DNA of 62,660 nt, counting the filler, from Methanobacteriota archaeon (GTDB lineage Archaea; JACRDV01): the NCBI GenBank assembly GCA_024860865.1. It is 5 parts of 5 records of this genome, joined end to end, with 100 filler letters (N's around TTAATTAATTAA, not from the genome) between each part and the next. Parts side by side here need not be neighbours in the genome. Positions count along the whole stretch, not along the records: positions 58,941 to 62,660 come from JACRDV010000102.1; 4 more parts are not named here. One strand, written 5' to 3'. Under the pieces are notes generated by a model that saw only the letters and a list, made by a program, of their open reading frames with translations, did no database searches and had not been told where the DNA came from. Position numbers and translations under genes: made by a program. Of this stretch, positions 7,762-62,660 are shown in pieces. Numbering within the stretch: the first letter of the stretch is position 1; every line of letters begins with the position of its first letter.

Positions 7762-7983
7762 ATGAAAGAGTCCTCTCCAAAGGTGCAAAAAATGCAGGAG
7801 AAAATTGAATATGAAGATGTTATTTTAGGAGAAATAGAAGATTTAAGAAAGAGGATAATTGAACAACGAAAATTGTTAGAGGAGTTACGAGAAAGAATTG
7901 ATACAGAGATGAAATTCGACTTAGAAAAATTAAAAGTTATAGAAAAACTTAGAAAAGAAAGATCAAATTTTATTCCAACTTAA
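7762..7983 (+). CDS. Small coiled-coil hypothetical protein
   Basis: Glu/Lys-rich heptad pattern; upstream TTTAAATA box. Confidence 0.55.
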   Translation: MKESSPKVQKMQEKIEYEDVILGEIEDLRKRIIEQRKLLEELRERIDTEMKFDLEKLKVIEKLRKERSNFIPT

Positions 7984-8009: not shown

Positions 8010-8276
8010 ATGGTGAGTAAAGAAGAATTAGAAGAGAAATTAAAAGAAGCAAAAACAGTTGAAGAGAAATTAAAAATAATGATTGAAACAGATGAAACTA
8101 TTTTAAAAGAGCTTAAGGAGCAGGGAGAGATGCTTGAAGAGCAAGGGAAAAGACTTGAGGAACAAAGAAAGAGGCTTGAGGCTCTTAGTTTTCAAACAAA
8201 AACCATCAAGGAATTATGGGGACTCTCTGTTGCAGAAAAAGCTATCGCAGCACCAACAAACCCTGGAAATAAATAA
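8010..8276 (+). CDS. Small coiled-coil hypothetical protein
   Basis: AGGAG Shine-Dalgarno; LEEQGKR-like heptad repeats. Confidence 0.65.
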   Translation: MVSKEELEEKLKEAKTVEEKLKIMIETDETILKELKEQGEMLEEQGKRLEEQRKRLEALSFQTKTIKELWGLSVAEKAIAAPTNPGNK

Positions 8277-8734
8277 TTGAAAATCTATTATTAAGTTATT
8301 TATTTGAAATGGTTTGAATCGATTGGGAATTCTTTATACAAAAGAAGACAAAAAGCATAAGTTTTCAAAAATCTATTATTAAAATTATTTTGAAAAATTT
8401 CCGTAAGTCTTTATATTTGAACGCATATGCTTGATATTATCGAAATATTTGGCGTCCGAATGACTTTAGAATTCTTTTTTGACTCGAGGGGTTCTTTTTC
8501 AAAATCTTCGCATTAACTCTTTTTCCTAAAGCTCGGTAATAATGAAGTAGAAAAAGAAAAAAGGAAAAAATAAAAGAATATGCGAGTTTTCTAAATTTGT
8601 TCATAATAAAGCGGAATTAAAAAAGCGGTATTATTGGTCACATGATCAATGCCATAAGTTTTTTCTTAATTTTAACATTTTAGTATAAACAAATCTAAAA
8701 TAGCCTACATTTGATATTTAAAAAAGTGAAAGAA

Positions 8735-12132: not shown

Positions 12133-12232
12133 NNNNNNNNNNNNNNNNNNNNNNNNNNNNNNNNNNNNNNNNNNNNTTAATTAATTAANNNNNNNNNNNN
12201 NNNNNNNNNNNNNNNNNNNNNNNNNNNNNNNN
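12133..12232. other. Artificial contig spacer
   Basis: N44-TTAATTAATTAA-N44, giving stops in all six frames. Confidence 0.98.
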
Positions 12233-19989: not shown

Positions 19990-21186
19990 TTAGAAGTCGG
20001 TCATAATTCTAAACTGGTCGACCTCTTCTACACCCATCCTCTGGAGGAATGCCCTTGCAGCACCGGTCACGTCCTTCGCAGCCGTAATAGCTCTTCCAAC
20101 CACAAGGATATCGGCACCCGATTTCAGGGCTTCCTCCACCCTATCGAGCCTGATCCCCCCGGCCACTGCCACCAATATCTTGTTATTGCATATTTTCTTA
20201 ATTTCGCCGATATTTCCCCACTGGGCCTTCTCGGTGTGCTCTACATCTATCGCCCTGTGGAGTTCCAAGATGTCCGGCTTCACCTTCAGTTTTTTGAGCA
20301 CCTCCGCCGGATCGGGCATGTTGAGAGTATCCATCAGCGACAGTGCCCCGACCTTCTGGCACTCCTCTATGAACTTCTCCATGGTCTTCAACGGCGCAAG
20401 GCCAGAAAACACTATTACGTCAGCGGTGGCATCTCCAGCCATTCTAGCCTCGAGGTTGCCCGTATCAAGTGTCTTCAAATCTGCGACCACAACGGTCTCC
20501 GGCCTCATCTGGTGGATCTTCTGCACCACTTCGACGCCGTATCTCTTTATCAGCGGCGTCCCGGCTTCGATTATTATTGCATCCGTTCTTGGAAGTGCCC
20601 TGATGACGCCTTCAACTCTTCGCCAGTCTGGAATGTCGAAGGCGATCTCAAGATACGGTGGCTTCTTCAGATTATTTATCCTAAATCCTATCATAGCATG
20701 TATTGATTTATCCTTTTCCTCTAAAATCTTATCGATGTTCGGAAACCCCTCCATAGCGCGCCTTAATGCAAGCTTCGTGGCCCCATAGTTGTACCTATAT
20801 AGTCTCTGGTAGTCCTTTCCGCGGGGATGAATGAACACAGAGACTATGATCAATATATCCTCCACTTTTTCCTTAGGTATGATTCCCTCCTCCACCGCGT
20901 CGACAACCGCCTTAGCTATAGCGCTTTGGGCAGGCCCAAAAATCTTTTCGGCATCTTCTAGGTTCCTTATGGTTACCTTAGGCACAATGAGCGTCGCGGG
21001 CTTAACAGGGAGATTGGGCCTCACCACAGCTAAAATGGGCGTATGCCCCTGTGTGGGTTGGGCTAAGGAATTGACAAAGGCCTGACTGATCGGCCCCTTT
21101 TTGCGCCCCACTACTAGATCGATATGCGCGATCTCAGGTTCTTCACCAACGAGGGCTTCACCCACTAAAAGTTCGTCGTCAATCAT
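19990..21186 (-). CDS. fae-hps: Bifunctional formaldehyde-activating enzyme / 3-hexulose-6-phosphate synthase
   Basis: Fae domain (VGEALVG, AHIDL, FGPAQ, YNYGATK) plus Hps domain (IEAGTPL, DLKTLDTG, AVAGGI, VGRAIT). Confidence 0.95.
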   Translation of the reverse strand: MIDDELLVGEALVGEEPEIAHIDLVVGRKKGPISQAFVNSLAQPTQGHTPILAVVRPNLPVKPATLIVPKVTIRNLEDAEKIFGPAQSAIAKAVVDAVEEGIIPKEKVEDILIIVSVFIHPRGKDYQRLYRYNYGATKLALRRAMEGFPNIDKILEEKDKSIHAMIGFRINNLKKPPYLEIAFDIPDWRRVEGVIRALPRTDAIIIEAGTPLIKRYGVEVVQKIHQMRPETVVVADLKTLDTGNLEARMAGDATADVIVFSGLAPLKTMEKFIEECQKVGALSLMDTLNMPDPAEVLKKLKVKPDILELHRAIDVEHTEKAQWGNIGEIKKICNNKILVAVAGGIRLDRVEEALKSGADILVVGRAITAAKDVTGAARAFLQRMGVEEVDQFRIMTDF

Positions 21187-24109: not shown

Positions 24110-24196
24110 GCCTCGGTAGCTCAGTTGGTAGAGCGCTCGCCTTGTAAATTTTATCCAGAGAGCGAGAGTGCGGGGGTTCGAATCCCTCCCGAGGCT
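24110..24196 (+). tRNA. tRNA-Thr(TGT) with a 14-nt intron at canonical position 37/38 (24147-24160)
   Basis: Acceptor GCCTCGG/CCGAGGC; D-arm GCTC/GAGC; anticodon stem CTCGC/GCGAG with CT-TGT-A; T-arm GGGGG-TTCGAAT-CCCTC. Confidence 0.92.
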
Positions 24197-28747: not shown

Positions 28748-28847
28748 NNNNNNNNNNNNNNNNNNNNNNNNNNNNNNNNNNNNNNNNNNNNTTAATTAAT
28801 TAANNNNNNNNNNNNNNNNNNNNNNNNNNNNNNNNNNNNNNNNNNNN
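28748..28847. other. Artificial contig spacer
   Basis: N44-TTAATTAATTAA-N44. Confidence 0.98.
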
Positions 28848-32339: not shown

Positions 32340-32858
32340 ATGGACCAAGAAGTAGACAAAACAATGGAAGAGAAGTTGTTTGAAAGGTATTATACCCACT
32401 TATTGGGAGGCGAAATATTACACAGTGCTTTATTTGGGAGCTTGCCAACTCTATTAAGACAACACCTCAAAGAAGAGAATATACCAGATTTCTTGGCGAA
32501 TAACAGTAAACAAGCAATCATCTATGTTCTTGGAAAAGAAACTACTCTAAGACGACATGTAAAGGGACTTCAAACATTTAAAGAAAAGATGATGTTTTGT
32601 TATGATTTGTATAGGGATTTGGGTTATTGCTTTAGGCATGAGATTGTAGAGGAAAATGATGAAAAACTTGTTGTAAAGGTTTATGCATGCCCGCATTGGG
32701 AATTCACTCAAAAAGATCCATTAGCCTGTTTTTCATGTATGGGCATAAAAATGGGCATCTATAAAGGGCTTTTTGGGGAAGATCTGCGCATAGATTATTT
32801 TAAAAGGCTAGCATTAGGCGATTTTTACTGTTTATTTAACTTTTATAAACCAAAATAA
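32340..32858 (+). CDS. V4R/ATC-hydrolase-like small ligand-binding protein
   Basis: VYACPHW, ACFSC and LALGDFYCLF Cys pattern; GAGGAG Shine-Dalgarno. Confidence 0.6.
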   Translation: MDQEVDKTMEEKLFERYYTHLLGGEILHSALFGSLPTLLRQHLKEENIPDFLANNSKQAIIYVLGKETTLRRHVKGLQTFKEKMMFCYDLYRDLGYCFRHEIVEENDEKLVVKVYACPHWEFTQKDPLACFSCMGIKMGIYKGLFGEDLRIDYFKRLALGDFYCLFNFYKPK

Positions 32859-41419: not shown

Positions 41420-41574
41420 TTTTTAGCTTAAAAATTAACTTATAATCGTAATTTAATCTTCTAATTAAAAATGAAATTTCGTGGCAAAGATAATTCGTTT
41501 TTTAGCATATTTTTTTGTAAGAAAATTTTAAAGGTGTGAAAAACGATGTAGTATTGGTTATTTTGGGTCGAAAA

Positions 41575-42177
41575 ATGCAATTTCTTAAGGGAATAATCAC
41601 CTTTACAATTTGTATATTAACTCTTTGCATTATGCTGTCAGCTATTGTAGTTTCAGTGACTTATACAGGAAACTATCTAAAATTCAACTTTGTTAATAAA
41701 ACCACTGGTACACCTGTAAGTATAATAGTAGTTGGAGAAAAAGCCCCAGGTGGAGCAAGCGATACCATAGCTGCTGCTGATATAGCGGCTCAAATTGGAA
41801 ATCTCGCTTATATAGTAAAAACAGAAACTTATCCCACAACTGCTGAAATCAAAGACCTTGTAAAAGCAACAGCGGTTACAATAACAACTATAACCTGCTA
41901 TAACATATCAAAGTCGATTGCTATATTAGATAGCGAAGTAACCGGAACTATAAAAGCAACTTATAATATGATCTTAGTTGGAGGACCAGAAGCAAACGAA
42001 ATGGTGAAGGACTTAGTTGGCAAAAAGGTTTCCAAGGTTACATGGACTGAAGCAGTGGACGGGGCGGTTGAGTATATAGCTGACCCATATGGAACTGGAA
42101 AAGATGTTTTAATAGTAGCAGGAGCAACGAGAGAAGGAACTCGCAAAGCTGCAGCTGATTTGGTTATAAGATTTTAA
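41575..42177 (+). CDS. Minimal S-layer-family protein (N- and C-terminal conserved domains only)
   Basis: Signal helix; IVVGEKA..ASDTIAAADIAAQIG; LDSE, ILVGGPEAN and VLIVAGATREGTRKAA motifs. Confidence 0.75.
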   Translation: MQFLKGIITFTICILTLCIMLSAIVVSVTYTGNYLKFNFVNKTTGTPVSIIVVGEKAPGGASDTIAAADIAAQIGNLAYIVKTETYPTTAEIKDLVKATAVTITTITCYNISKSIAILDSEVTGTIKATYNMILVGGPEANEMVKDLVGKKVSKVTWTEAVDGAVEYIADPYGTGKDVLIVAGATREGTRKAAADLVIRF

Positions 42178-46480: not shown

Positions 46481-47551
46481 TTATAAAATTACTCCAACTG
46501 GTTTAATCTCAAGTTTACTTTGAGGATCAGCAACAGCTCTTCCGATAACTGAGGAGCGTATATTATATTTTTCAATAATTCTCCTAGCTTTATCAACTTC
46601 ATTTTTTGATAAAACTATACAAAATCCAGTTCCCATATTAAAGGTACGATACATTTCCTGATTACTTATGCGACCAAATTTTTGAATTGCTTTAAAAATT
46701 AGCTGTGGTTCTGGTAAATTATCGAGAACAAACCCTATTTTTGGAATCTTTCCAATACGTTTCAGTTTAAGAAATCCTCCTCCTGTGATATGAGCTAACC
46801 CTCGTACTTCGCAATTTTTTATAATATCGAGCACTGGTTTGGCGTAAATCTGAGTCGGTTCAAGGAGTTCTTCACCAACAGTACGATTTGAATCCGGCAA
46901 CTTCTCATCAAGTTTTAATTTTGCAGATTCCAAAAGTACCTTTCTTGCGAGAGTAAATCCATTCGAGTGGATGCCAGAACTACTAAGGCCTAGTACCACA
47001 TCATTGGATTGAATTTTCTCTCCAGTAATAATTTTGTCTCTTTCAACAATACCAACACACATCCCAGCTAAATCGAATCCTTTCTTTTCAATTTCTCCGC
47101 GTATCATTTCAGGTATTACGGCAGTTTCCCCACCAACAATTGAAATGCCTGCAATTTCAGCTCCTTTAACTAATCCTTTCATTAGTTCCTCTGTCAACTG
47201 CCGATCGGGTTTTTGAACTGCTAAATAATCGATCAAAGAAATTGGTTCGGCTCCTACACAGATAGTGTCATTAACACACATAGCAACAAGGTCAATGCCA
47301 ATTGTATCGAACTTCTTAATTAACTGAGCTACTAGAATTTTAGTGCCTACTCCATCTACATGGAGCGACAATATTTTGTCGTTCCCAATTTCAATTAACC
47401 CTGCGAAATGGCCAATTATATCTAATGGGGCTCCGATTTTTCTCTCTCTAAATTTGAATGTCTTTTTAATATGATCCCAAATTATACTGTGTATCTTAGA
47501 AACTTCATTAACATTAACGCCGACCTTGGCGTAAGTAAATTTCTCACTCAT
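46481..47551 (-). CDS. purM: Phosphoribosylformylglycinamidine cyclo-ligase
   Basis: DGVGTK, GGETA, SSGIHSNG, HITGGG and TFNMGTG motifs. Confidence 0.96.
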   Translation of the reverse strand: MSEKFTYAKVGVNVNEVSKIHSIIWDHIKKTFKFRERKIGAPLDIIGHFAGLIEIGNDKILSLHVDGVGTKILVAQLIKKFDTIGIDLVAMCVNDTICVGAEPISLIDYLAVQKPDRQLTEELMKGLVKGAEIAGISIVGGETAVIPEMIRGEIEKKGFDLAGMCVGIVERDKIITGEKIQSNDVVLGLSSSGIHSNGFTLARKVLLESAKLKLDEKLPDSNRTVGEELLEPTQIYAKPVLDIIKNCEVRGLAHITGGGFLKLKRIGKIPKIGFVLDNLPEPQLIFKAIQKFGRISNQEMYRTFNMGTGFCIVLSKNEVDKARRIIEKYNIRSSVIGRAVADPQSKLEIKPVGVIL

Positions 47552-47601
47552 ATTAATCACTCAGTAATTTTCAAGTTAAATTACCTAAAATTAGAGGTTA
47601 A

Positions 47602-49106: not shown

Positions 49107-49523
49107 ATGAAATATTTAGATTTTTCAGTTCCGCTTTGTATTGCCACAGGTCAGCCGAGAGATAAATATGAGGCGTGTAAAAGGCTGATGCATAAGATCG
49201 AGAAGGGCGAGGAAGTAGTAATAGCCACTCCACTCCTTTTTGTTGAATGCGCTCATATATTTGAGCGAGAAGGTCATTCCAGAGAAAAAATTTCCAACCA
49301 ATTAAAAGTACTGTTAGATTGTAAAGGGCTAAAAACCGTAGATTTGGAGAACCGAAAAAATTGTAATCAAGCTATCGAGCTGTTCGGCAAATATCAAATA
49401 GATATCGTTGACGCGTTAAATATTTTGACCATGCGCAAATTAAATGTTAAGGAGATTTATTCGCTAGATTCTCATTATGATATTATTAAAGAAATCAAAA
49501 GAATAGAACCAACTATACGTTAG
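49107..49523 (+). CDS. vapC: PIN-domain toxin (VapC)
   Basis: KYLD, VEC, IVDAL and IYSLDSHYD motifs. Confidence 0.88.
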   Translation: MKYLDFSVPLCIATGQPRDKYEACKRLMHKIEKGEEVVIATPLLFVECAHIFEREGHSREKISNQLKVLLDCKGLKTVDLENRKNCNQAIELFGKYQIDIVDALNILTMRKLNVKEIYSLDSHYDIIKEIKRIEPTIR

Positions 49524-51967: not shown

Positions 51968-52067
51968 NNNNNNNNNNNNNNNNNNNNNNNNNNNNNNNNN
52001 NNNNNNNNNNNTTAATTAATTAANNNNNNNNNNNNNNNNNNNNNNNNNNNNNNNNNNNNNNNNNNNN
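51968..52067. other. Artificial contig spacer
   Basis: N44-TTAATTAATTAA-N44. Confidence 0.98.
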
Positions 52068-52452: not shown

Positions 52453-52851
52453 TCAGATGTACCCTAAAAGTTCTAAATGAGATTTTTTTCGAAGATAAAT
52501 CACGGGAATACCAATTTCTCTCGCTTTTTTTCTTAAGTTTTTATCATTACTGCAAAGTACAGCTTTGTTATTCAGCGCATATTCAATTAGCAACTCATCT
52601 ATAGGCTTTGTTGTTCTTAGAGGGATTACTCGACAATTGTTTGCTAAGTTCAAAGCGATATCTGCAGCTTTTCTTTCTAAAGATTTTTTAGAGCTCTCTT
52701 TTATTCTTTTCAACTCATCCAGTATAGGAGATAAAACTACTAACTCATAGGCAACTGGTAACAATCTTTCAGTCTCTTTGAATATATCAACTTTGAACTG
52801 GGCTGGTATCATGAGGAAATTTGAATCTAATACAACTATTCTCTTAGCCAT
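52453..52851 (-). CDS. Fcf1/Utp24-like PIN domain ribonuclease
   Basis: VLDSNFLMIPAQFKVDIF, DELL, SNDKNLR and PVIYLR motifs. Confidence 0.88.
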   Translation of the reverse strand: MAKRIVVLDSNFLMIPAQFKVDIFKETERLLPVAYELVVLSPILDELKRIKESSKKSLERKAADIALNLANNCRVIPLRTTKPIDELLIEYALNNKAVLCSNDKNLRKKAREIGIPVIYLRKKSHLELLGYI

Positions 52852-52963
52852 TTCGAATCCCTATTAATTTTTTTCTTGTGAAAATTTAAAGCGCTTTTTC
52901 ATTTATTTGTTAAAGCTTTAATATTTGGGGCACCAATTCTATCCTACTAAGGTTGGTGATTAT

Positions 52964-54109
52964 ATGACACTTGAAAAAACACTTCTAATGATACCGGGTC
53001 CTGTAAACGTTTCGCCCAGGGTTTTAAGGGCTATGGCAAAACCTGTTATAAACCATAGAAGCCCCGAATTTGGCAAACGAACTTTAGAAATCAATGAAAT
53101 GTTAAAAAAGGTCTTCAAAACTAACAATGACATTATTATTTTAACTTCCTCTGGGACTGGTGGAGTTGAGGCTGCGCTCGCGAACACAATTAAAGCTGGT
53201 GACAAAGTTTTAGTTTGTGTAAATGGTGCTTTTGGAGAAAGAGCCCGGAATATTGCAGAAGTTTACAACGCAGATATTATAGATGTTAACGCTGATTGGG
53301 GCAAGGCAATCAGTTCAAAAGATGTTAAAGAAAAACTTACTCAAGATACAAAAGCTGTTGTAATGGTCTATAACGAAACCTCTACTGGAGTTCAAAATCC
53401 CATAGGAGAAGTTGGAGAAATCGTAAAGCAAACCAATACTCTATTCATTGTTGATGCTATTTCAGGACTCGGCGGTCATTATGTTGGTGTCGATGAATTT
53501 GGAATTGATATTTGTGTAGTTGGTTCTCAAAAGTGCTTGGCAGCTCCGCCAGGATTAGCTTTTGTCTCGATATCTTCTAAAGCTTGGAAAGTAATTGAAT
53601 TAAATAAACCAAGAAGTCTGTACTTTGATTTAGTTAGAGCAAAGAGTTTTTTGCAAAAAGATCCGCCACAGACTCCATTTACTCCAGCAGTCTCAACTTT
53701 CTATGGATTACATGAGGCCCTTAAGATAGTAGAAGAAGAAGGTTTAGAAAATTGGATTAAAAGGCATGAGATAATAGCAAAGGCTACCAGAGAAGGCATC
53801 AAAGCAATGGGATTAGAATTATTTGCTGATGAAAAAGTGGCTTCAAATACTGTGACTCCGATAAAATATCCAGCGGGAATTAATGATAAAGAATTTAGAA
53901 AAACTATGCGAACGAAATATCTTGTTGAGGTAGCTGGTGGCCAAAAACAGCTTTCTGGGAAAATCTTTAGGATCGGGCACCTAGGCACTGTTACATCGAG
54001 CGATATAATTAGCACACTTTCTGCAGTAGAAATGGCGATGAATGATTTTGGGATTAAAATTGAGCCTGGAGTTGGGTTATCTGCAGCTCAAAGGGTATTT
54101 AGAGGTTAA
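52964..54109 (+). CDS. Class V aminotransferase (serine-pyruvate / alanine-glyoxylate family)
   Basis: LMIPGP, NETSTG, VDAISG, GSQKCLAAPPG and FRIGHLG motifs; ATG after GGTGA. Confidence 0.92.
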   Translation: MTLEKTLLMIPGPVNVSPRVLRAMAKPVINHRSPEFGKRTLEINEMLKKVFKTNNDIIILTSSGTGGVEAALANTIKAGDKVLVCVNGAFGERARNIAEVYNADIIDVNADWGKAISSKDVKEKLTQDTKAVVMVYNETSTGVQNPIGEVGEIVKQTNTLFIVDAISGLGGHYVGVDEFGIDICVVGSQKCLAAPPGLAFVSISSKAWKVIELNKPRSLYFDLVRAKSFLQKDPPQTPFTPAVSTFYGLHEALKIVEEEGLENWIKRHEIIAKATREGIKAMGLELFADEKVASNTVTPIKYPAGINDKEFRKTMRTKYLVEVAGGQKQLSGKIFRIGHLGTVTSSDIISTLSAVEMAMNDFGIKIEPGVGLSAAQRVFRG

Positions 54110-54265: not shown

Positions 54266-54799
54266 TCATAACTTTTCCAATTCTTTTTTAACTATCTCAT
54301 AATCTTTTGGGCTTAATCTATAACCGGATTTGATCATATCTTCAAATGCTTGAATGACCAGTTTTTTCTTAACCAGTTTTCTCTTATAAAGTAGAATAAA
54401 GAGATATACACTTCCTCTTGTTTTGACGTCCATTACTTTAGCTATTTCTCTTCCTATGGCTTCATCTATTATTGCAACTCCATTTTTTTCTTTAGCTAAA
54501 GCTATTGTAGCCGCCTCACCTTCGTGGAGAGGTTGTTTAAAGTTGGTAGCAGCATTTTTAACAAAATTAAAAAATTTTTTATCTTTTAATTTAATTACAG
54601 TTATAATTTTATTTTCAACTAATTTTTCGATCATGTAAGCATCCAGAGCACCTTTCTCTTTTCCATTGATAACAACATCAACATAAACTTCCTCTGGGAT
54701 TACTATTTCGTTGACAACTTTTTTAAGCTTTTTTAAAATCCAACTATAGCCTGCTTTGGTTAGGTGTATCATTGGGCTTGCATTTAAAATAAGCTTCAT
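54266..54799 (-). CDS. DUF3368-type PIN domain protein (toxin)
   Basis: ILNASP, IPEEV, LHEGEAATIALA and IIDE motifs. Confidence 0.85.
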   Translation of the reverse strand: MKLILNASPMIHLTKAGYSWILKKLKKVVNEIVIPEEVYVDVVINGKEKGALDAYMIEKLVENKIITVIKLKDKKFFNFVKNAATNFKQPLHEGEAATIALAKEKNGVAIIDEAIGREIAKVMDVKTRGSVYLFILLYKRKLVKKKLVIQAFEDMIKSGYRLSPKDYEIVKKELEKL

Positions 54800-55098
54800 T
54801 CCTTTAGCCCGGCTTTTATATCTTCGATTATGTCTTTGGCTTTAATCGGTAAGGAGATTCCTTTTTTCTCAGTTAAATCTAGCATATCCCAAATCGTCAC
54901 TTCTGCCATTTTGGCTGCTTTCCATAGGGTGATTTTTCCCTGCTGCAGGAGTTGCAACGCGAGGTCTTTTTTCCATTCCTTTATCCCTTTCTCGAGCATT
55001 TTCCTGAGCGCGTCAGATTTACTTAATGCTTCTATTTCCGTAATTTTCTCTAATTCTCTCCACAAGTCTTTGGATATTCTCATTGCTACGGTTTCCAT
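54796..55098 (-). CDS. UPF0175 family antitoxin with RHH N-terminus
   Basis: KSDALRKML and GKITLWKAAKMAEV motifs; 4-bp overlap with the PIN gene. Confidence 0.85.
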   Translation of the reverse strand: METVAMRISKDLWRELEKITEIEALSKSDALRKMLEKGIKEWKKDLALQLLQQGKITLWKAAKMAEVTIWDMLDLTEKKGISLPIKAKDIIEDIKAGLKE

Positions 55099-55217
55099 AT
55101 TGCTTTCCTCGTTTACATATGCAACAATTGCAAACATAAATTTTTCGATTTGACAGTGAAAAAAGTTAAAAAATTAGCTATTGAACACAATTAGCTTGAT
55201 GTTTGTTTTTGAAATAG

Positions 55218-56018: not shown

Positions 56019-56603
56019 ATGATGAAAATCTTAGATGAAGTATTAGGCTCTGGAACCAAAATTCGAGCCCTTAGAGTTCTTGTGCTTAACCCAACAGAAT
56101 CTTACTATGAAACTGAGCTCGCAAACTTAGCAAGTGTCCCACAATCTAGTTTACATGTTGAAATTGAAATTTGGTATGAAATCGGGCTTGTAAATATAAT
56201 CAAAATGGGTAAACTAAATTTTATTTCGATTGATCAAACCCACTGGTTATATCCTATTTTGAAAAAATTATTTGAATCTGAGAAATTCGCAATAGAGAAA
56301 GCAATTCAAGAATTTGTTTATAAAATCAAACAAGAACTTGGCTCTGATATTAAAAAAATTGTTATATTCGGTTCGGCAGCTCGAAAAGAGATGCGAGTAC
56401 TAAGCGATATTGATATCATAATTGTTGTATCTAATAAAGCTAATTTAAAAATTGTTGAAGATAAACTTGCTGAGATCAGGTTGCTCTTTTTAAATAAACA
56501 TTTTTGGTTTGAAACTATTGTTTACTCAGAATCAGAGTTTAGCAACGAATCTCAATCACTCTTTTTAAGAAATGTAAGGACAGAAGGCATAGTTTATGAA
56601 TGA
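56019..56603 (+). CDS. wHTH plus MNT antitoxin
   Basis: IFGSAAR...SDIDI motif; N-terminal HTH. Confidence 0.87.
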   Translation: MMKILDEVLGSGTKIRALRVLVLNPTESYYETELANLASVPQSSLHVEIEIWYEIGLVNIIKMGKLNFISIDQTHWLYPILKKLFESEKFAIEKAIQEFVYKIKQELGSDIKKIVIFGSAARKEMRVLSDIDIIIVVSNKANLKIVEDKLAEIRLLFLNKHFWFETIVYSESEFSNESQSLFLRNVRTEGIVYE

Positions 56604-56964
56604 GATTTCCGAAATTAAAGATTATTTAACAATAGCAAAAAGAGATTTTGAAACAGCAACAAAAATTTTAGAATATAACCCAGATGTATCAATTTTCATA
56701 TTTATATTGGCGATGGAAGCAGCCGCTAAAAGCATTTTAGTTTCTAAAGGCGTTGCAAGATTGCCAAAAACACACATGGGTTTATTTAGCCTTTTAAGGG
56801 AAAGTGTAGCTGAACTGGGAGGTCTCCTTAAGGATTATTCAAAAATTTTGGCCATGCGAGCAAAAGCTGGTTATAGAACTAAACCTGTCTACGATGTGAA
56901 TCAGGCAGCACAAGTTCAGGCTAAAGTTAAGGTTTTTATTGAGACAGTTGAACGCTTAGTTTAG
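56596..56964 (+). CDS. HEPN domain protein
   Basis: AMEAAAKS, PKTH and R-x4-Y (RAKAGY) motifs. Confidence 0.85.
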   Translation: MNEISEIKDYLTIAKRDFETATKILEYNPDVSIFIFILAMEAAAKSILVSKGVARLPKTHMGLFSLLRESVAELGGLLKDYSKILAMRAKAGYRTKPVYDVNQAAQVQAKVKVFIETVERLV

Positions 56965-58840: not shown

Positions 58841-58940
58841 NNNNNNNNNNNNNNNNNNNNNNNNNNNNNNNNNNNNNNNNNNNNTTAATTAATTAANNNN
58901 NNNNNNNNNNNNNNNNNNNNNNNNNNNNNNNNNNNNNNNN
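58841..58940. other. Artificial contig spacer
   Basis: N44-TTAATTAATTAA-N44. Confidence 0.98.
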
Positions 58941-61276
58941 ATAACATACACATTTGCCTTTGGGAATTGTTTTTTAAGCTGGCGAGCATTTTTGATTGCT
59001 ACCATACAGCATATTCTCGAGCAGTAAGTTCTACCTTCTTTCTCTCTTGCTCCCACGCACTGAATCATTGCTATGTTTTTTGGCTCTTGTAGTTTATTCT
59101 CAGCAATGAGTCTTTCAAGCTCAAGTTGAGTTATTACATTCTTGTATTTTCCATAACCATACATACCCTTTGGTTCAAAGGGTTTTGCACCAGTTGCAAC
59201 AATTATTGTTCCAACAGTTATTTTTTCTTCTTTGCCTGCTTTATCAAGAGTTACTTCAAAATTTCCGACATAACCTTTCACATGTTTAATGCTGGTAGAA
59301 GTGTAAAGAATAATATTTTTATTTTCTTCGATATTTTTTATCACAGAATTTAACAATTCATTAGCTTTCATGTTATCAGGAAATAAAGTATCCATATCTC
59401 GAATTAAACCGCCGAGCTTTTCAGTCTTTTCAACCAAGTAAACCTTGAACCCTTGGTTGGCTATGTTTAAAGCAGCAGTCATACCAGATATTCCAGCCCC
59501 AATAACGAGGGAGGATGGGTTGATTTGCACTTCTTTTTCGTATCTGGGTTCCAGAAGTCTTGCTTTTGCAACAGCCATTCTAACTAGTTCCAGTGCTTTC
59601 TTTGTGGCGTGTTTAGGATCGCCCATATGAACCCAAGAACACTGGTCTCGAATATTTGCCATTTCAAAAAGATATGGATTCAATCCAACTTCTCGACAGG
59701 TCTCTCTGAATAATGGCTCGTGAGTTCTAGGCGTGCAAGAAGCTACAACAACTCTGTTCAAGTTATGCTCTTTTATTCTTGCTTTTATCCCTTCTATAGC
59801 ATCTGCAGAGCAAGTAAATAGATTATGTTCAGCATAAACAACATTCGGCAGCGTTTTAGCGTACTTTGCTACTTTTGGGACATCTAAATAACCGCCGATA
59901 TTTAATCCGCAACTGCACACAAAAACGCCAACTCTATGTTCTTGGCCCCTAACATCTATCTCCTCTGGATATTCTTTTTCTATGTTAGAAGGGAAAACAA
60001 ACATCGATGCTCTAGCTGCTGCTCCACTTGCTTGAGCAACCGAGTCAGGAATATCCCTTGGACCACTACTAACACCACAAGCATAAATGCCTGGTTTAAT
60101 TGTGTCGATGGGACTGATAAGAGGATTTAGTTCTTTAACAAAACCATATTCATCAAGGGATATTCCCAATTTCTCAGCTAACTCATTAATACCTTTTTTT
60201 GGAAAAGTAGCTGTAGATAAAACAACCAAATCTACTTCCATTTTTTTAAATTTCTTTTCTTTCTGGTCTTCATATTTTATAATTAAACTACCATTATTTG
60301 ATTGTTCTATGGCACTTGGAATGCCTTTGATATAGTTTATTTTGTATTCATCCCTTGCCTTTTTATAAAATTCCTCAAAATTTTTTCCTACAGTACGAAT
60401 GTCAATATAAAAAATGTTAATTTCTTCTAACGATTTTTCATGTTCTTTCGCAGAGATAGCTTCTTTTGTTGAATATGTACAGCAAATTCGTGAACAATAT
60501 GGCTTATTTTTATCCCGGCACCCGACGCATTGTATGTAAGCGATTTTACGCGCTACTTTTCCATCTGATGGCCGCAGTAACCTTCCTTTAGTTGGTCCTG
60601 AAGCACTTAATAGCCTTTCAAAATCCAGTGCTGTTAAAACATTCTTGTAAACGCCATATCCATATTCAAGCATATTACGTGGCTCATAATAATCGCCACC
60701 TACCGCGATGATAATTGATCCCACATTTACCTCAACTTCATTGGCTTTCATATCATAATCTATTGCACCAGGTCCACAAACAATCTTGCATTGGCCGCAT
60801 CCTATGCAGTGCTCTTTGTCTATAGTGTATTTTAGGGGAACTGCTTGGGGAAATGGTGTATATATGGCCTTTCTTATGCCAAGCTTTTGATCAAATTCGT
60901 TCGGTACTTTAATCTTACAGACTTGCGAACATAACCCACAACCATTGCACTTTTCTTCTTTCACATAACGTGGTTTTCTCTCTATTTTTACGGTGAAATT
61001 GCCTGGTTGCCCTTTAACTTCATTAACTTCTGAATACATGAGTAATTTTATATTAGGGTGGCGTGAGCAGTCAATCATTTTCGGGGCTAAGATTCATATT
61101 GCACAATCCATAGTTGGAAATGTTTTATCTAACTGAGCCATAACTCCTCCTAAACTTGGGGTTTTTTCAACTAAGTAAACTTGGCATCCTTGACTAGCTA
61201 AGTCTAGCGAAGCTTGAATGCCGGCTATACCTCCACCTATTACGAGGGCCGAACTAGAAGAGATTTGAAATGCCAT
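58941..61276 (-). CDS. hdrA: Tandem-domain heterodisulfide reductase subunit A; selenoprotein candidate (TGA at codon 61, 61094-61096); 3' end truncated
   Basis: ORF-track entries 61094-61276 and 58889-61078 lie in one frame: GGGIAG...[30 protein letters not shown]. Also ferredoxin insert, YCSRICC twice, GVFVCSCG and [10 protein letters not shown]. Confidence 0.93.
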
Positions 61277-61365
61277 CTTACTTCCTCCCTCTTTTAAAAT
61301 TCTGTGTCTGAGTGCTTAATTTCTCGTTAGGAATCTTGATTAACAGGGACTTTGCAGGTTCAATT

Positions 61366-61404
61366 CTCATGCTGTGATTCTGTTTGATTCTCACAGCACT
61401 CATT
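61366..61404 (-). promoter_or_regulatory. Candidate SECIS element within a larger hairpin (61298-61461) upstream of hdrA
   Basis: Minus strand AUGA-GUGCUGUGA-GAA-UC-AAACA-GA-A-UCACAGCAU-GA-G. Confidence 0.7.
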
Positions 61405-61484
61405 GCTGTTTTTCTTCTTCATCTTCCTAAGATTATTTTTAAGCACCTCAGGTACAGAATTATTCAATAATCATTGCAATCTTC

Positions 61485-61808
61485 CTATAATTTATTTTGA
61501 GGTCTTTGTTTGCGATATAAATTAACGAACCCATAAAAATTAATTTTATAACGGCAACTTTCTACGCATCGAGGTCTGCTTGCAGGTATTATAGTACCAT
61601 TGACATTGAGTTCTTTGCACATATTGCACTTTTCAAGCATCTTTTCGTCTAATTCAAACCCGATGTTAAGTTTTCTTATTATTACTCTTGGAGAGAAAGA
61701 TTCGTCAATAAATTCTGCTATTCGACAACTACCTACGCATTTTCCGCAGTCAATACACTTATATAAATGAGTTTTTTTAATCAAATCCTCAAGATCAGTT
61801 TGAATCAT
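61485..61808 (-). CDS. Small HdrC-like 4Fe-4S protein
   Basis: CIDCGKCVGSC, FSPR and CNMC...CVESC motifs. Confidence 0.75.
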   Translation of the reverse strand: MIQTDLEDLIKKTHLYKCIDCGKCVGSCRIAEFIDESFSPRVIIRKLNIGFELDEKMLEKCNMCKELNVNGTIIPASRPRCVESCRYKINFYGFVNLYRKQRPQNKL

Positions 61809-61823
61809 AGTTCTTTCCTCATC

Positions 61824-62660
61824 TTATGTGTAGTAGGGCACGTATTTGCCCTCTTTTCCTCTAAGCTCTGAGACAACTTTTCTTTTTTCTTTTTTTAATG
61901 AGACGTTCTTTTTGATTTCATTCAATTCGACTCTTTTTTCAACCTCGACATAGCCGAGCTCTTCCGCTTTTGTGAGTAAGTTGATGCCTTTTTGAGTTCT
62001 AACAATTACAGTGGACCAACCTGCTGGAGTGCCTACTGATCCTACGCTAATGTCTGAGAACTCAGCAGTGAAGTTACAGCACAACTTGCAAGATTCAGGT
62101 ACACATTCTTCAAAAGCTTTAACAGATTTTTCAACTTGACCATTTTTTGTGTAAACGATAAACTTACCTTTTTTAATATCTGTTTTAATTATCTGATCCA
62201 TTTGTATGTTAAATTTGGATTCAATCGTCCTTCTCAGCCCATCATATGGAAAATTCTCAAAACAAAATAATCCTATTAAAAGGAAATCTAAAGGATTTTC
62301 AGACTCAGATGTTATCTCCAATAGATTTTTTAAGAATGAAATTTGAGTCTTTCTTGCGCCAGTTATTTGGCAACCTGTGCCAACTAGAGCTAACCGAGAT
62401 AACTCTTGTAACGATCTACCTAATTTCATTGATGTAGCTGTTCTTGTATATTTAGTTCCAGCCGCTTGCAAAAGTTCTTCCTTGCTCTTAGCTATGATTG
62501 GGCTTGTATCCCAATTATTAAATCTAGTCGCAACTACTGCACCGTCGATTAATTTGTTTTCTAAGGCACACAGTAAAAGTGAAGTTACTGCTCCACCATC
62601 TTGAGCTTTTTCTAAAATTTCTGGTATTTTGGATCTTACTGCCAGAATCTTTTTGTAATA
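61824..62660 (-). CDS. FrhB/FdhB family F420-interacting subunit; starts beyond the window end
   Basis: Frame is open to 62660: AQDGGAVTSLL, AAGTKY, VGTGCQ, IGLFCFENF, CKLC and DISVGSVG motifs. Confidence 0.92.
   Translation of the reverse strand, partial: YYKKILAVRSKIPEILEKAQDGGAVTSLLLCALENKLIDGAVVATRFNNWDTSPIIAKSKEELLQAAGTKYTRTATSMKLGRSLQELSRLALVGTGCQITGARKTQISFLKNLLEITSESENPLDFLLIGLFCFENFPYDGLRRTIESKFNIQMDQIIKTDIKKGKFIVYTKNGQVEKSVKAFEECVPESCKLCCNFTAEFSDISVGSVGTPAGWSTVIVRTQKGINLLTKAEELGYVEVEKRVELNEIKKNVSLKKEKRKVVSELRGKEGKYVPYYT

Follow-up and report, generated by a model that had tools for sequence, protein, structure and literature searches.

Probable selenocysteine recoding at the conserved cysteine site of a fused archaeal HdrA-like protein, with a candidate insertion element in the leader

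Selenocysteine (Sec) in HdrA proteins is a known phenomenon. The HdrA of Methanococcales and Methanopyrus contains a single Sec, located at canonical 'position ~200' (Mariotti 2016; PMC4989117), and a 2026 review presents frhA-frhD-hdrA as a typical selenoprotein operon (PMC13188914). In Asgard archaea, paired hdrA and frhD genes are reported to share one Sec insertion sequence (SECIS) element (PMC4989117; PMC11227280). The 2026 review confines archaeal Sec to Methanococcales, Methanopyrales, and Asgard archaea. The 2024 study of the Asgard selenoproteome (PMC11227280) describes the ability of other archaea to use Sec as unclear, and treats as open the question of whether an ancestral SECIS predates the split between Asgard and Euryarchaeota. 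Here we describe an HdrA-like gene with an in-frame TGA codon at the second Cys of its DCxxC motif. The gene is located in a stretch of archaeal DNA from assembly GCA_024860865.1 (JACRDV01), which was analyzed at its full length of 62,660 nucleotides (hereafter, the window). The most likely explanation for this codon is Sec recoding via the distant-SECIS route of archaea, with a mixed-type candidate SECIS residing in the leader of the gene. The two features that define the site are as follows.

58941..61276, minus strand: fused double HdrA-like gene, 5' 778 codons (from translation, Pfam, NCBIfam, homologs, and PDB)
61096-61094, minus strand: in-frame TGA, codon 61, the proposed Sec codon, equivalent to Cys197 of a solved HdrA

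The locus resembles the Sec-containing HdrA genes of Methanococcales and Methanopyrus in that its UGA occupies the second Cys of DCxxC, and in that the GAA/A bulge of the candidate SECIS is flanked by [A/G]UGA..[G/A]A. However, those proteins are about 650 aa in length, whereas the fused double HdrA considered here has about 1000 aa. Their SECIS elements reside in 3' untranslated regions (UTRs) and have three G/C pairs in the upper stem, whereas the candidate is upstream and its upper stem has 2 bp. Furthermore, the organism falls outside those orders as judged by ABCE1 similarity.

The HdrA-like open reading frame (ORF) begins with an ATG at 61276-61274. Its first 60 codons encode the beginning of a flavin adenine dinucleotide (FAD)-binding domain (GGGIAG...), retain all invariant FAD-motif residues, and end with ...FPTMDCAI. 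After the TGA, the frame continues with ILAPKM... and stays open for 717 codons, up to position 58941. The TGA is the sole stop among the 778 codons and there is no second lesion, although approximately 230 C-terminal codons lie beyond the end of the contig and are missing. Homologs of the protein are very numerous and are typically ~1000 aa long. The best family model is HdrA2 (NF040770), which scores 916.5 bits with this truncated query compared to a cut-off of 1100 bits, and HdrA chains in PDB are matched at E about 1e-149. Query residues 8-434 match residues 144-572 of 5odc_A with no gaps early in the alignment, such that query residue 61 corresponds to residue 197 of the solved protein. 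This correspondence, along with the published location of Sec, indicates that the Sec site has been correctly identified. Thus, two claims made in a preliminary description of this DNA are upheld: that an in-frame TGA interrupts an otherwise intact coding region, on which sequence and translation agree, and that this codon is located at the second Cys of the HdrA DCxxC motif. Gene callers split the gene, which is recorded as separate proteins of 60 aa and 699 aa.

The two halves of the predicted protein differ in ways that are relevant to the function of the recoded residue. Half 1 (about residues 1-440) contains an FAD/thioredoxin-reductase domain, an inserted ferredoxin domain, and the DCxxU motif, but has no Fe-S domain at its N-terminus. 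Half 2, which begins near residue 445, has the Cys-rich N-terminal domain together with another FAD domain from which DCxxC is missing. In the crystal structure discussed by Chadwick et al. (2022; PMC9012536), the N-terminal [4Fe-4S] cluster of each HdrA receives a ligand, Cys197, from the partner subunit, and fused HdrA proteins are reported there to divide these elements, with one half retaining Cys197 and the other half the N-terminal domain. The same complementarity is present in the visible part of this protein, the last ~230 residues being unseen. Such halves have also been described for the HdrA3/4 fusions or tandems of anaerobic methanotrophic archaea (ANME) and for Moorella MetFV-HdrABC-MvhD (PMC9012536). 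In contrast to the ANME fusions described there, the order of the halves is reversed, with the Cys197-bearing half first, and the ligand is encoded by UGA.

How often might a TGA fall on this codon by chance? All 19 full-length homologs in the alignment have Cys in the corresponding column, although this set carries a bias, as gene callers have no way of reporting a Sec form at full length. Likewise, TGC or TGT is used in all 129 motif copies from 80 distantly related genome loci, of which many derive from Asgard metagenome-assembled genomes (MAGs). There are 368 other single-base routes to a stop codon in the visible gene, so a random nonsense change would land on codon 61 only about once in 370. 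A reassigned genetic code was also considered. TGA terminates 16 of the 47 frames of at least 150 codons in the window, internal TGA codons are absent from all other real genes of the window, and TGA therefore still functions as a normal stop, which rules out reassignment. Two contigs on record carry the identical 60-aa N-terminal ORF, although this is weak evidence since both records may stem from the same reads.

Sec forms of the same protein family can be recognized in metagenomes. A broad degenerate DNA pattern (DKTFPTxDCxx-TGA-xxxPK) recovered at least 120 metagenome stretches with TGA at this site, and many of those listed cover query residues 9-778. Judged from these sequences, Sec forms are common in this HdrA family in metagenomes. 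When the 60-aa N-terminal ORF was used as a query, thousands of short proteins were returned. Excluding the record from the window itself, 14 of 15 fetched proteins are N-terminal fragments that end exactly before the site in an MDC[A/S]I context. Those Sec-form fragments with names are bacterial (Zixibacteria and KSB1), and the gene described here shares both the long HdrA family and the MDC[A/S]I-U context with bacterial Sec-containing HdrA proteins (Desulfobacterota, Zixibacteria, KSB1, and others). In nearly all Sec forms (proteins P0248-P0350), the UGA is preceded by MDC[A/S]I, whereas the majority of Cys forms have [N/I/L]DC[S/A][M/I/L]C. The residues preceding the site may thus mark Sec forms of the HdrA family.

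A bacterial SECIS hairpin sits directly after the UGA codon that it serves. For the gene described here, the 90 nt following the UGA fold with a predicted free energy of -7.2 kcal/mol (z-score of +1.27), and the UGA plus 60 nt with -0.8 kcal/mol (z of +1.9). A comparison set of 122 metagenomic Sec-form sites (loci L081-L200) gave a median of -13.6 kcal/mol for the same 60-nt region, and z exceeds 1 at none of the 122, including the six with a G+C fraction of 0.42 or lower. The HdrA-like gene is the least structured of the 123 sites after the UGA. It lacks the hairpin that the compared Sec-form sites carry within about 15-35 nt after the UGA, indicating that the bacterial mechanism is not used.

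A structure with several features of archaeal SECIS elements is instead found on the other side of the codon, in the spacer that precedes the gene.

61277..61484, minus strand: spacer of 208 nt from the upstream ORF to the hdrA start codon (from sequence and fold)
61367..61403, minus strand: SECIS-like hairpin (from folds and from descriptor scans with controls)

The spacer is more structured than usual (z of -3.18 for the leader fold). The hairpin lies ~80 nt past the stop of a ferredoxin-like ORF, 90 nt before the start of hdrA, and ~270 nt before the UGA. Its core is formed by AUGA at 61403-61400 and GA at 61368-61367. These nucleotides flank a 9-bp stem that lacks mismatches (61399-61391 with 61377-61369; four G-C, four A-U, and one G-U pair), followed by a bulge (GAA at 61390-61388 and a single A at 61378), a 2-bp ministem (U-A and C-G; 61387-61386 with 61380-61379), and a 5-nt loop (61385-61381). 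An extra lower helix flanks the hairpin. The local 61-nt fold has a predicted free energy of -15.3 kcal/mol (z of -3.73), and 0 of 200 shuffled sequences folded equally well. Judging from the sequence, an A/T-rich, TATA-like stretch at 61442-61433 could place the transcript start just ahead of the hairpin, and a GGAGG-type sequence immediately before the hdrA ATG is a putative ribosome-binding site.

Two descriptors were used to evaluate how unusual this hairpin is. The first requires a GAA/A bulge, a lower stem of at least 8 bp, and an upper stem of 2-5 bp, and it gave three matches on both strands of the window, including the hairpin at 61403-61367. The other two are a hairpin with A/T pairs only and one with five G-U pairs. 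In 1,755,491 bases of other loci this descriptor gave 18 loose matches, and 100 dinucleotide shuffles of the window gave a mean of 0.69; under strict limits that were set with the candidate in view (stem of at least 9 bp, no more than one G-U pair, and at least four G-C pairs), neither control gave any match. The second, independent descriptor requires AUGA, a perfect stem of at least 8 bp, a loop of 8-20 nt, and then GA or AA. It matched only this hairpin in the window and 28 sites in the 1,755,491 bases. Either signature alone is expected in a given 208-nt stretch about once per thousand, and both are united here in one hairpin, beside the only gene with a Cys-aligned TGA. The A/T-only match, at 8267-8305 on the plus strand, was rejected as a SECIS candidate, there being no UGA-containing gene nearby. 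It extends over the stop codon of a small ORF for a coiled-coil protein (8010-8276), another such ORF is present at 7762-7983, and the hairpin probably is a terminator-like structure.

Published models provide a further basis for comparison. The euryarchaeal SECIS (eaSECIS) has an invariant asymmetric bulge in which GAA on the 5' side faces a single A on the 3' side (PMC4989117; PMC11227280), a lower stem of about 10 bp, and an upper stem of three G/C pairs. A looser eaSECIS model allows an upper stem of 3-6 bp, and, in Methanococcales and Methanopyrus, every eaSECIS of hdrA and frhD has its lower stem preceded by [A/G]UGA and followed by [G/A]A (PMC11227280). The candidate has both the GAA/single-A bulge and the [A/G]UGA..[G/A]A flanks. 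With regard to a G/C-rich lower stem, it has 9 bp of which only four are G-C, in a genome with 36% G+C. Its upper stem falls short of the euryarchaeal form by one pair and also differs in base composition. By our reading of the published PatScan pattern, the hairpin would pass only via the one deletion that the pattern allows.

The hairpin also agrees with the Asgard models. The eSECIS-like core described in PMC11227280 consists of GA..[G/A]A with a stem of 7-15 bp and no more than two mismatches, to which type I adds an apical loop of 8-20 nt, and type II a ministem of 2-8 bp, a bulge of 4-12 nt, and a loop of 2-6 nt. A 9-bp stem with 0 mismatches and a 13-nt loop region lies within these limits, and, when read as type II, the hairpin has a 2-bp ministem, a 4-nt bulge (GAA plus A), and a 5-nt loop. 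These models are loose, however, as the 28 AUGA-type matches in 1.755 Mb demonstrate. Additional likenesses to the Sec-containing HdrA genes of Lokiarchaeia and other Asgard archaea are the AUGA..GA core itself and a stem whose length equals that reported for lokiSECIS. One SECIS may also serve several cistrons of an operon. In contrast, Asgard elements are described as residing downstream of hdrA-frhD and as mostly being without a functional GAA/A bulge. Moreover, Asgard HdrA proteins often have several Sec residues, whereas there is one Sec site in the protein described here.

The position of the candidate has a single documented parallel. According to PMC4989117, archaeal SECIS elements usually are located 3' of the gene, with one documented 5'-UTR exception, from Methanocaldococcus jannaschii (Wilting et al. 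1997, cited therein). That element also precedes its UGA, but the likeness is positional only, and it sits in a different gene. The proposed mechanism draws on both archaeal types of element. The TGA would be read as Sec under the direction of a distant SECIS, the candidate hairpin at 61403-61367, acting from the 5' side and joining the AUGA..GA core of Methanococcales/Methanopyrus hdrA and frhD elements with the euryarchaeal GAA/A bulge. The resulting Sec61, as selenolate in place of thiolate, would by homology serve as a cluster ligand within a single polypeptide, with half 1 supplying the Cys197-equivalent residue and half 2 supplying the N-terminal [4Fe-4S] domain. The organism would then be expected to have tRNA-Sec, PSTK, SepSecS, aSelB, and SelD, and the contig with the HdrA-like gene would belong to the deep-branching archaeon of this bin. 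The hairpin could be intercistronic, serving UGA codons of genes past the upstream end of the contig. The M. jannaschii gene with the upstream element is reportedly fdhA.

A number of observations weigh against Sec recoding and must be accounted for. The nearest full-length homologs, at 76%, 71%, and 68% identity, carry Cys. A narrow search pattern made from the peptide of the window plus TGA had 0 matches in metagenomes, and the closest Sec-form locus among the matches listed is only 47% identical. Together, Cys in the nearest relatives and the lack of narrow-pattern matches indicate a Sec form without sampled close kin. A scan of genome contigs likewise yielded a best relative with just 54% identity. 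Also, the TGA is known from assembled sequence. With regard to the hairpin, the upper stem has two pairs (U-A and C-G) rather than three G/C pairs, the location is 5' of the UGA with the single precedent noted above, and the strict descriptor limits were chosen after the candidate had been seen. No SECIS family was matched when Rfam was searched with the HdrA contig at E values up to 10, which gave only weak C/D-box-like and other chance matches, although Rfam may have no archaeal SECIS model. The 3' UTR of hdrA, where a canonical SECIS usually is found, is beyond the contig end, so a second element of the canonical kind may be located there. No tRNA-Sec, PSTK, SepSecS, SelB/EFSec, or SelD gene is present within the window. 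Finally, this gene family is not free of plain nonsense or frameshift lesions. One relative of homolog P0003, with 90% identity to it, is split after ...GGLIK into pieces of 661 aa and 392 aa (P0244 and P0245) on one 3,687-bp contig.

That split relative was considered as a possible second Sec position, and was rejected because the break is at a non-Cys site; it is an ordinary lesion or assembly error. It does lend some weight to the view that the TGA itself is a plain lesion, either a nonsense mutation of recent origin, in a pseudogene or in a minority allele, or an error of assembly or sequencing that turned TGT/TGC into TGA, and that the hairpin is unrelated, perhaps a transcript-stabilizing or regulatory structure. 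TGA is one base from the Cys codons used in all 129 related motifs, the contig is short, and, as already indicated, the nearest relatives have Cys and the window contains no Sec machinery. Nevertheless, this explanation is unlikely. A random stop would have to strike the one codon in 369 that aligns with Cys197, and would have to coincide with a hairpin within 270 nt that bears both SECIS signatures and has no strict counterpart in 1.755 Mb of loci or 100 window shuffles. Furthermore, the 60 codons ahead of the stop keep every invariant FAD-motif residue, share the MDC[A/S]I context with 14 of 15 Sec-form fragments, and are recorded on two contigs.

A separate matter is whether the gene belongs to the organism to which it has been assigned. 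The window consists of five contigs concatenated end to end, and features on separate contigs are tied together only by binning. The lineage of the bin was evaluated with ABCE1, which is encoded on the second contig (15327-17126, plus strand). Among 5.8 billion clustered proteins, this ABCE1 has one relative at 83% identity, and all others are at 61% or less, those with names being Hadarchaeales, Hydrothermarchaeales, Methanobacterium, and MSBL1. A maximum-likelihood tree of 26 rows places the window and its 83% relative on an isolated long branch (stem length of 0.43) outside the Hadarchaeales, Hydrothermarchaeales, and Methanobacteriales groups, but does not resolve the exact position. Rows for Methanococcales, Methanopyrus, or secure Asgard members are missing from this tree because none occurred among the top 120 matches, which in itself argues that the organism is outside those groups. 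ABCE1 proteins in 401 sampled genomes of one phylum reach no more than 58% identity, and none is a near relative. By this sequence comparison, the archaeal lineage of the bin has been sampled very poorly. The contig with the HdrA-like gene has a G+C fraction of 0.366, compared to 0.348-0.373 for the other four, with tetranucleotide r values of 0.94-0.95, and the best full-length homolog of the protein (76% identity) is labeled Candidatus Hydrothermarchaeota. Composition and homolog label are consistent with one deep-branching archaeon but are not proof.

Slightly less likely than a plain lesion is a second alternative, that the contig carries a true Sec codon but has been mis-binned from a known Sec user such as an Asgard archaeon or a bacterium, in which case the range of Sec would not be extended. 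Several facts could be cited in its favor: the contig is connected to the others by binning, the named Sec-form N-terminal fragments are bacterial, and, according to PMC4989117 and PMC11227280, the AUGA..GA core is a hallmark of Asgard SECIS elements. Also, HdrA-type genes move between lineages, as considered in a discussion of horizontal gene transfer (PMC11227280). However, the 3.7-kb contig matches the others in composition, its closest homolog has the Hydrothermarchaeota label, and Asgard and Bathyarchaeia copies are no more than 56% identical to the protein. A bacterial source is further argued against by the unstructured region after the UGA, which differs from all 122 compared sites, and an Asgard source by the GAA/A bulge, which is a euryarchaeal feature. 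Selenium-independent expression, through near-cognate read-through (Cys or Trp) or separate production of the two ORFs (60 aa and 729 or more aa), is very improbable, as a product starting at Met67 would be without the GxGxxG FAD-binding motif, TGA is a normal stop for 16 of the 47 long frames, and the SECIS-like hairpin would be left unexplained.

Sec recoding needs to be kept separate from the question of range. The preliminary description had proposed that this organism uses Sec, and that the trait might thereby extend to a new clade, as hinted by the type of S-layer protein and by an intron-containing tRNA. The first proposal is likely, and is supported by the leader hairpin, by the lack of a bacterial-type hairpin after the UGA, and by the 1-in-370 codon. 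The second has gained from the isolated ABCE1 branch, but the link between the HdrA contig and the bin comes from composition, and the S-layer and tRNA genes are both on other contigs of the concatenated bin. Extension of the range to a new archaeal lineage is plausible but unproven. We hold only tentatively the fuller proposal that a further lineage of archaea, belonging to none of Methanococcales, Methanopyrales, and Asgard, uses Sec with a hybrid, intercistronic SECIS upstream of the UGA, which should be regarded as possible rather than probable.

If these proposals are correct, the novelty would lie in the lineage, in an archaeal host protein that is a fused HdrA, and in a hybrid SECIS located upstream. 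A literature search found no published report of Sec for Hydrothermarchaeota or for this lineage. Such a finding would bear on which archaea use Sec and on the age of the ancestral SECIS, and would suggest that the postulated 'archetype' SECIS of the archaeal ancestor survives in a third lineage. It would also mean that action from the 5' side can be the regular arrangement for an archaeal SECIS in some lineages, rather than a one-off case. The hairpin would be a concrete element for testing in a Methanococcus reporter system. Because gene callers split such genes into pieces like the 60-aa and 699-aa proteins noted above, the Sec trait could easily be missed in surveys of MAGs.

The remaining features of the contig and its joints are listed below.

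61485..61808, minus strand: Cys-rich ferredoxin-like ORF, 107 aa (Pfam Fer4_9, E of 8.1e-5, below the cut-off)
61824..62660, minus strand: FrhB/FdhB-family (F420-binding) gene, 5' end lost at the contig end (Pfam FrhB_FdhB_N and FrhB_FdhB_C)
12133-12232, 28748-28847, 51968-52067, and 58841-58940: contig joints, each consisting of 44 N, TTAATTAATTAA, and 44 N

The contig with the HdrA-like gene (58941-62660; 3,720 bp) is the last and shortest of the five, and is cut at both ends. The joint at 58841-58940 marks a contig end, and the HdrA-like gene therefore is incomplete. Four joints were found in all, and the genes cut at joints are those for polyprenyl synthetase, eRF1, LeuRS, and HdrA. On the minus strand, the order of features is the FrhB/FdhB-family gene, the ferredoxin-like ORF, the spacer, and the HdrA-like gene. 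The FrhB/FdhB-family gene scores 245.9 bits with NCBIfam PRK09325, below the cut-off of 269 bits, and has no in-frame TGA in its visible part. The ferredoxin-like ORF has no NCBIfam match and no in-frame TGA. Parts of the stretch are contained in four public DNA sequencing runs from three studies (shares of 0.84, 0.73, 0.31, and 0.14), and no RNA run is listed among the runs that match.

Several candidates for Sec machinery elsewhere in the window were assessed and rejected. An AIRS-family ORF at 46481-47560, considered as SelD, is PurM, and a class-V aminotransferase at 52925-54109, considered as SepSecS, is not that enzyme. The Pfam model for SepSecS gave only weak partial matches in 151 genomes of one phylum, and these have no diagnostic value because the model also matches non-Sec control genomes. 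At the gathering threshold, Rfam found one ordinary tRNA in the whole window. This tRNA (24110-24196, plus strand) was considered as tRNA-Sec and rejected, being an ordinary tRNA with a 16-nt intron. It scores 62.9 bits with Rfam and was missed by ARAGORN, and the 16-nt insertion is in the region of the anticodon loop. In the leader of the HdrA-like gene, Rfam produced weak matches to models of C/D-box small nucleolar RNAs (snoRNAs) that cover the hairpin (61339-61479, minus strand; snR66 with 25.6 bits and an E of 0.65, and SNORD110 with an E of 7). No proper C and D boxes are evident there by eye, and these matches probably are driven by the kink-turn-like internal loop that AUGA and GA form in the hairpin.

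Other contigs of the bin carry euryarchaeal or methanogen-like traits, including a Fae-Hps fusion (19990-21186, minus strand), an S-layer protein of the M. jannaschii type (41536-42177, plus strand; TIGR01564, 70 bits), and a weak match to 'methanogen output domain 1' (32340-32858, plus strand). Also present in the window are two pairs of nucleotidyltransferase and HEPN genes resembling MNT/HEPN-type toxin-antitoxin systems (882-2037 and 56019-56964, both plus strand), as well as PIN-domain and UPF0175/DUF3368 pairs (49107-49523, 52453-52851, and 54266-55137).

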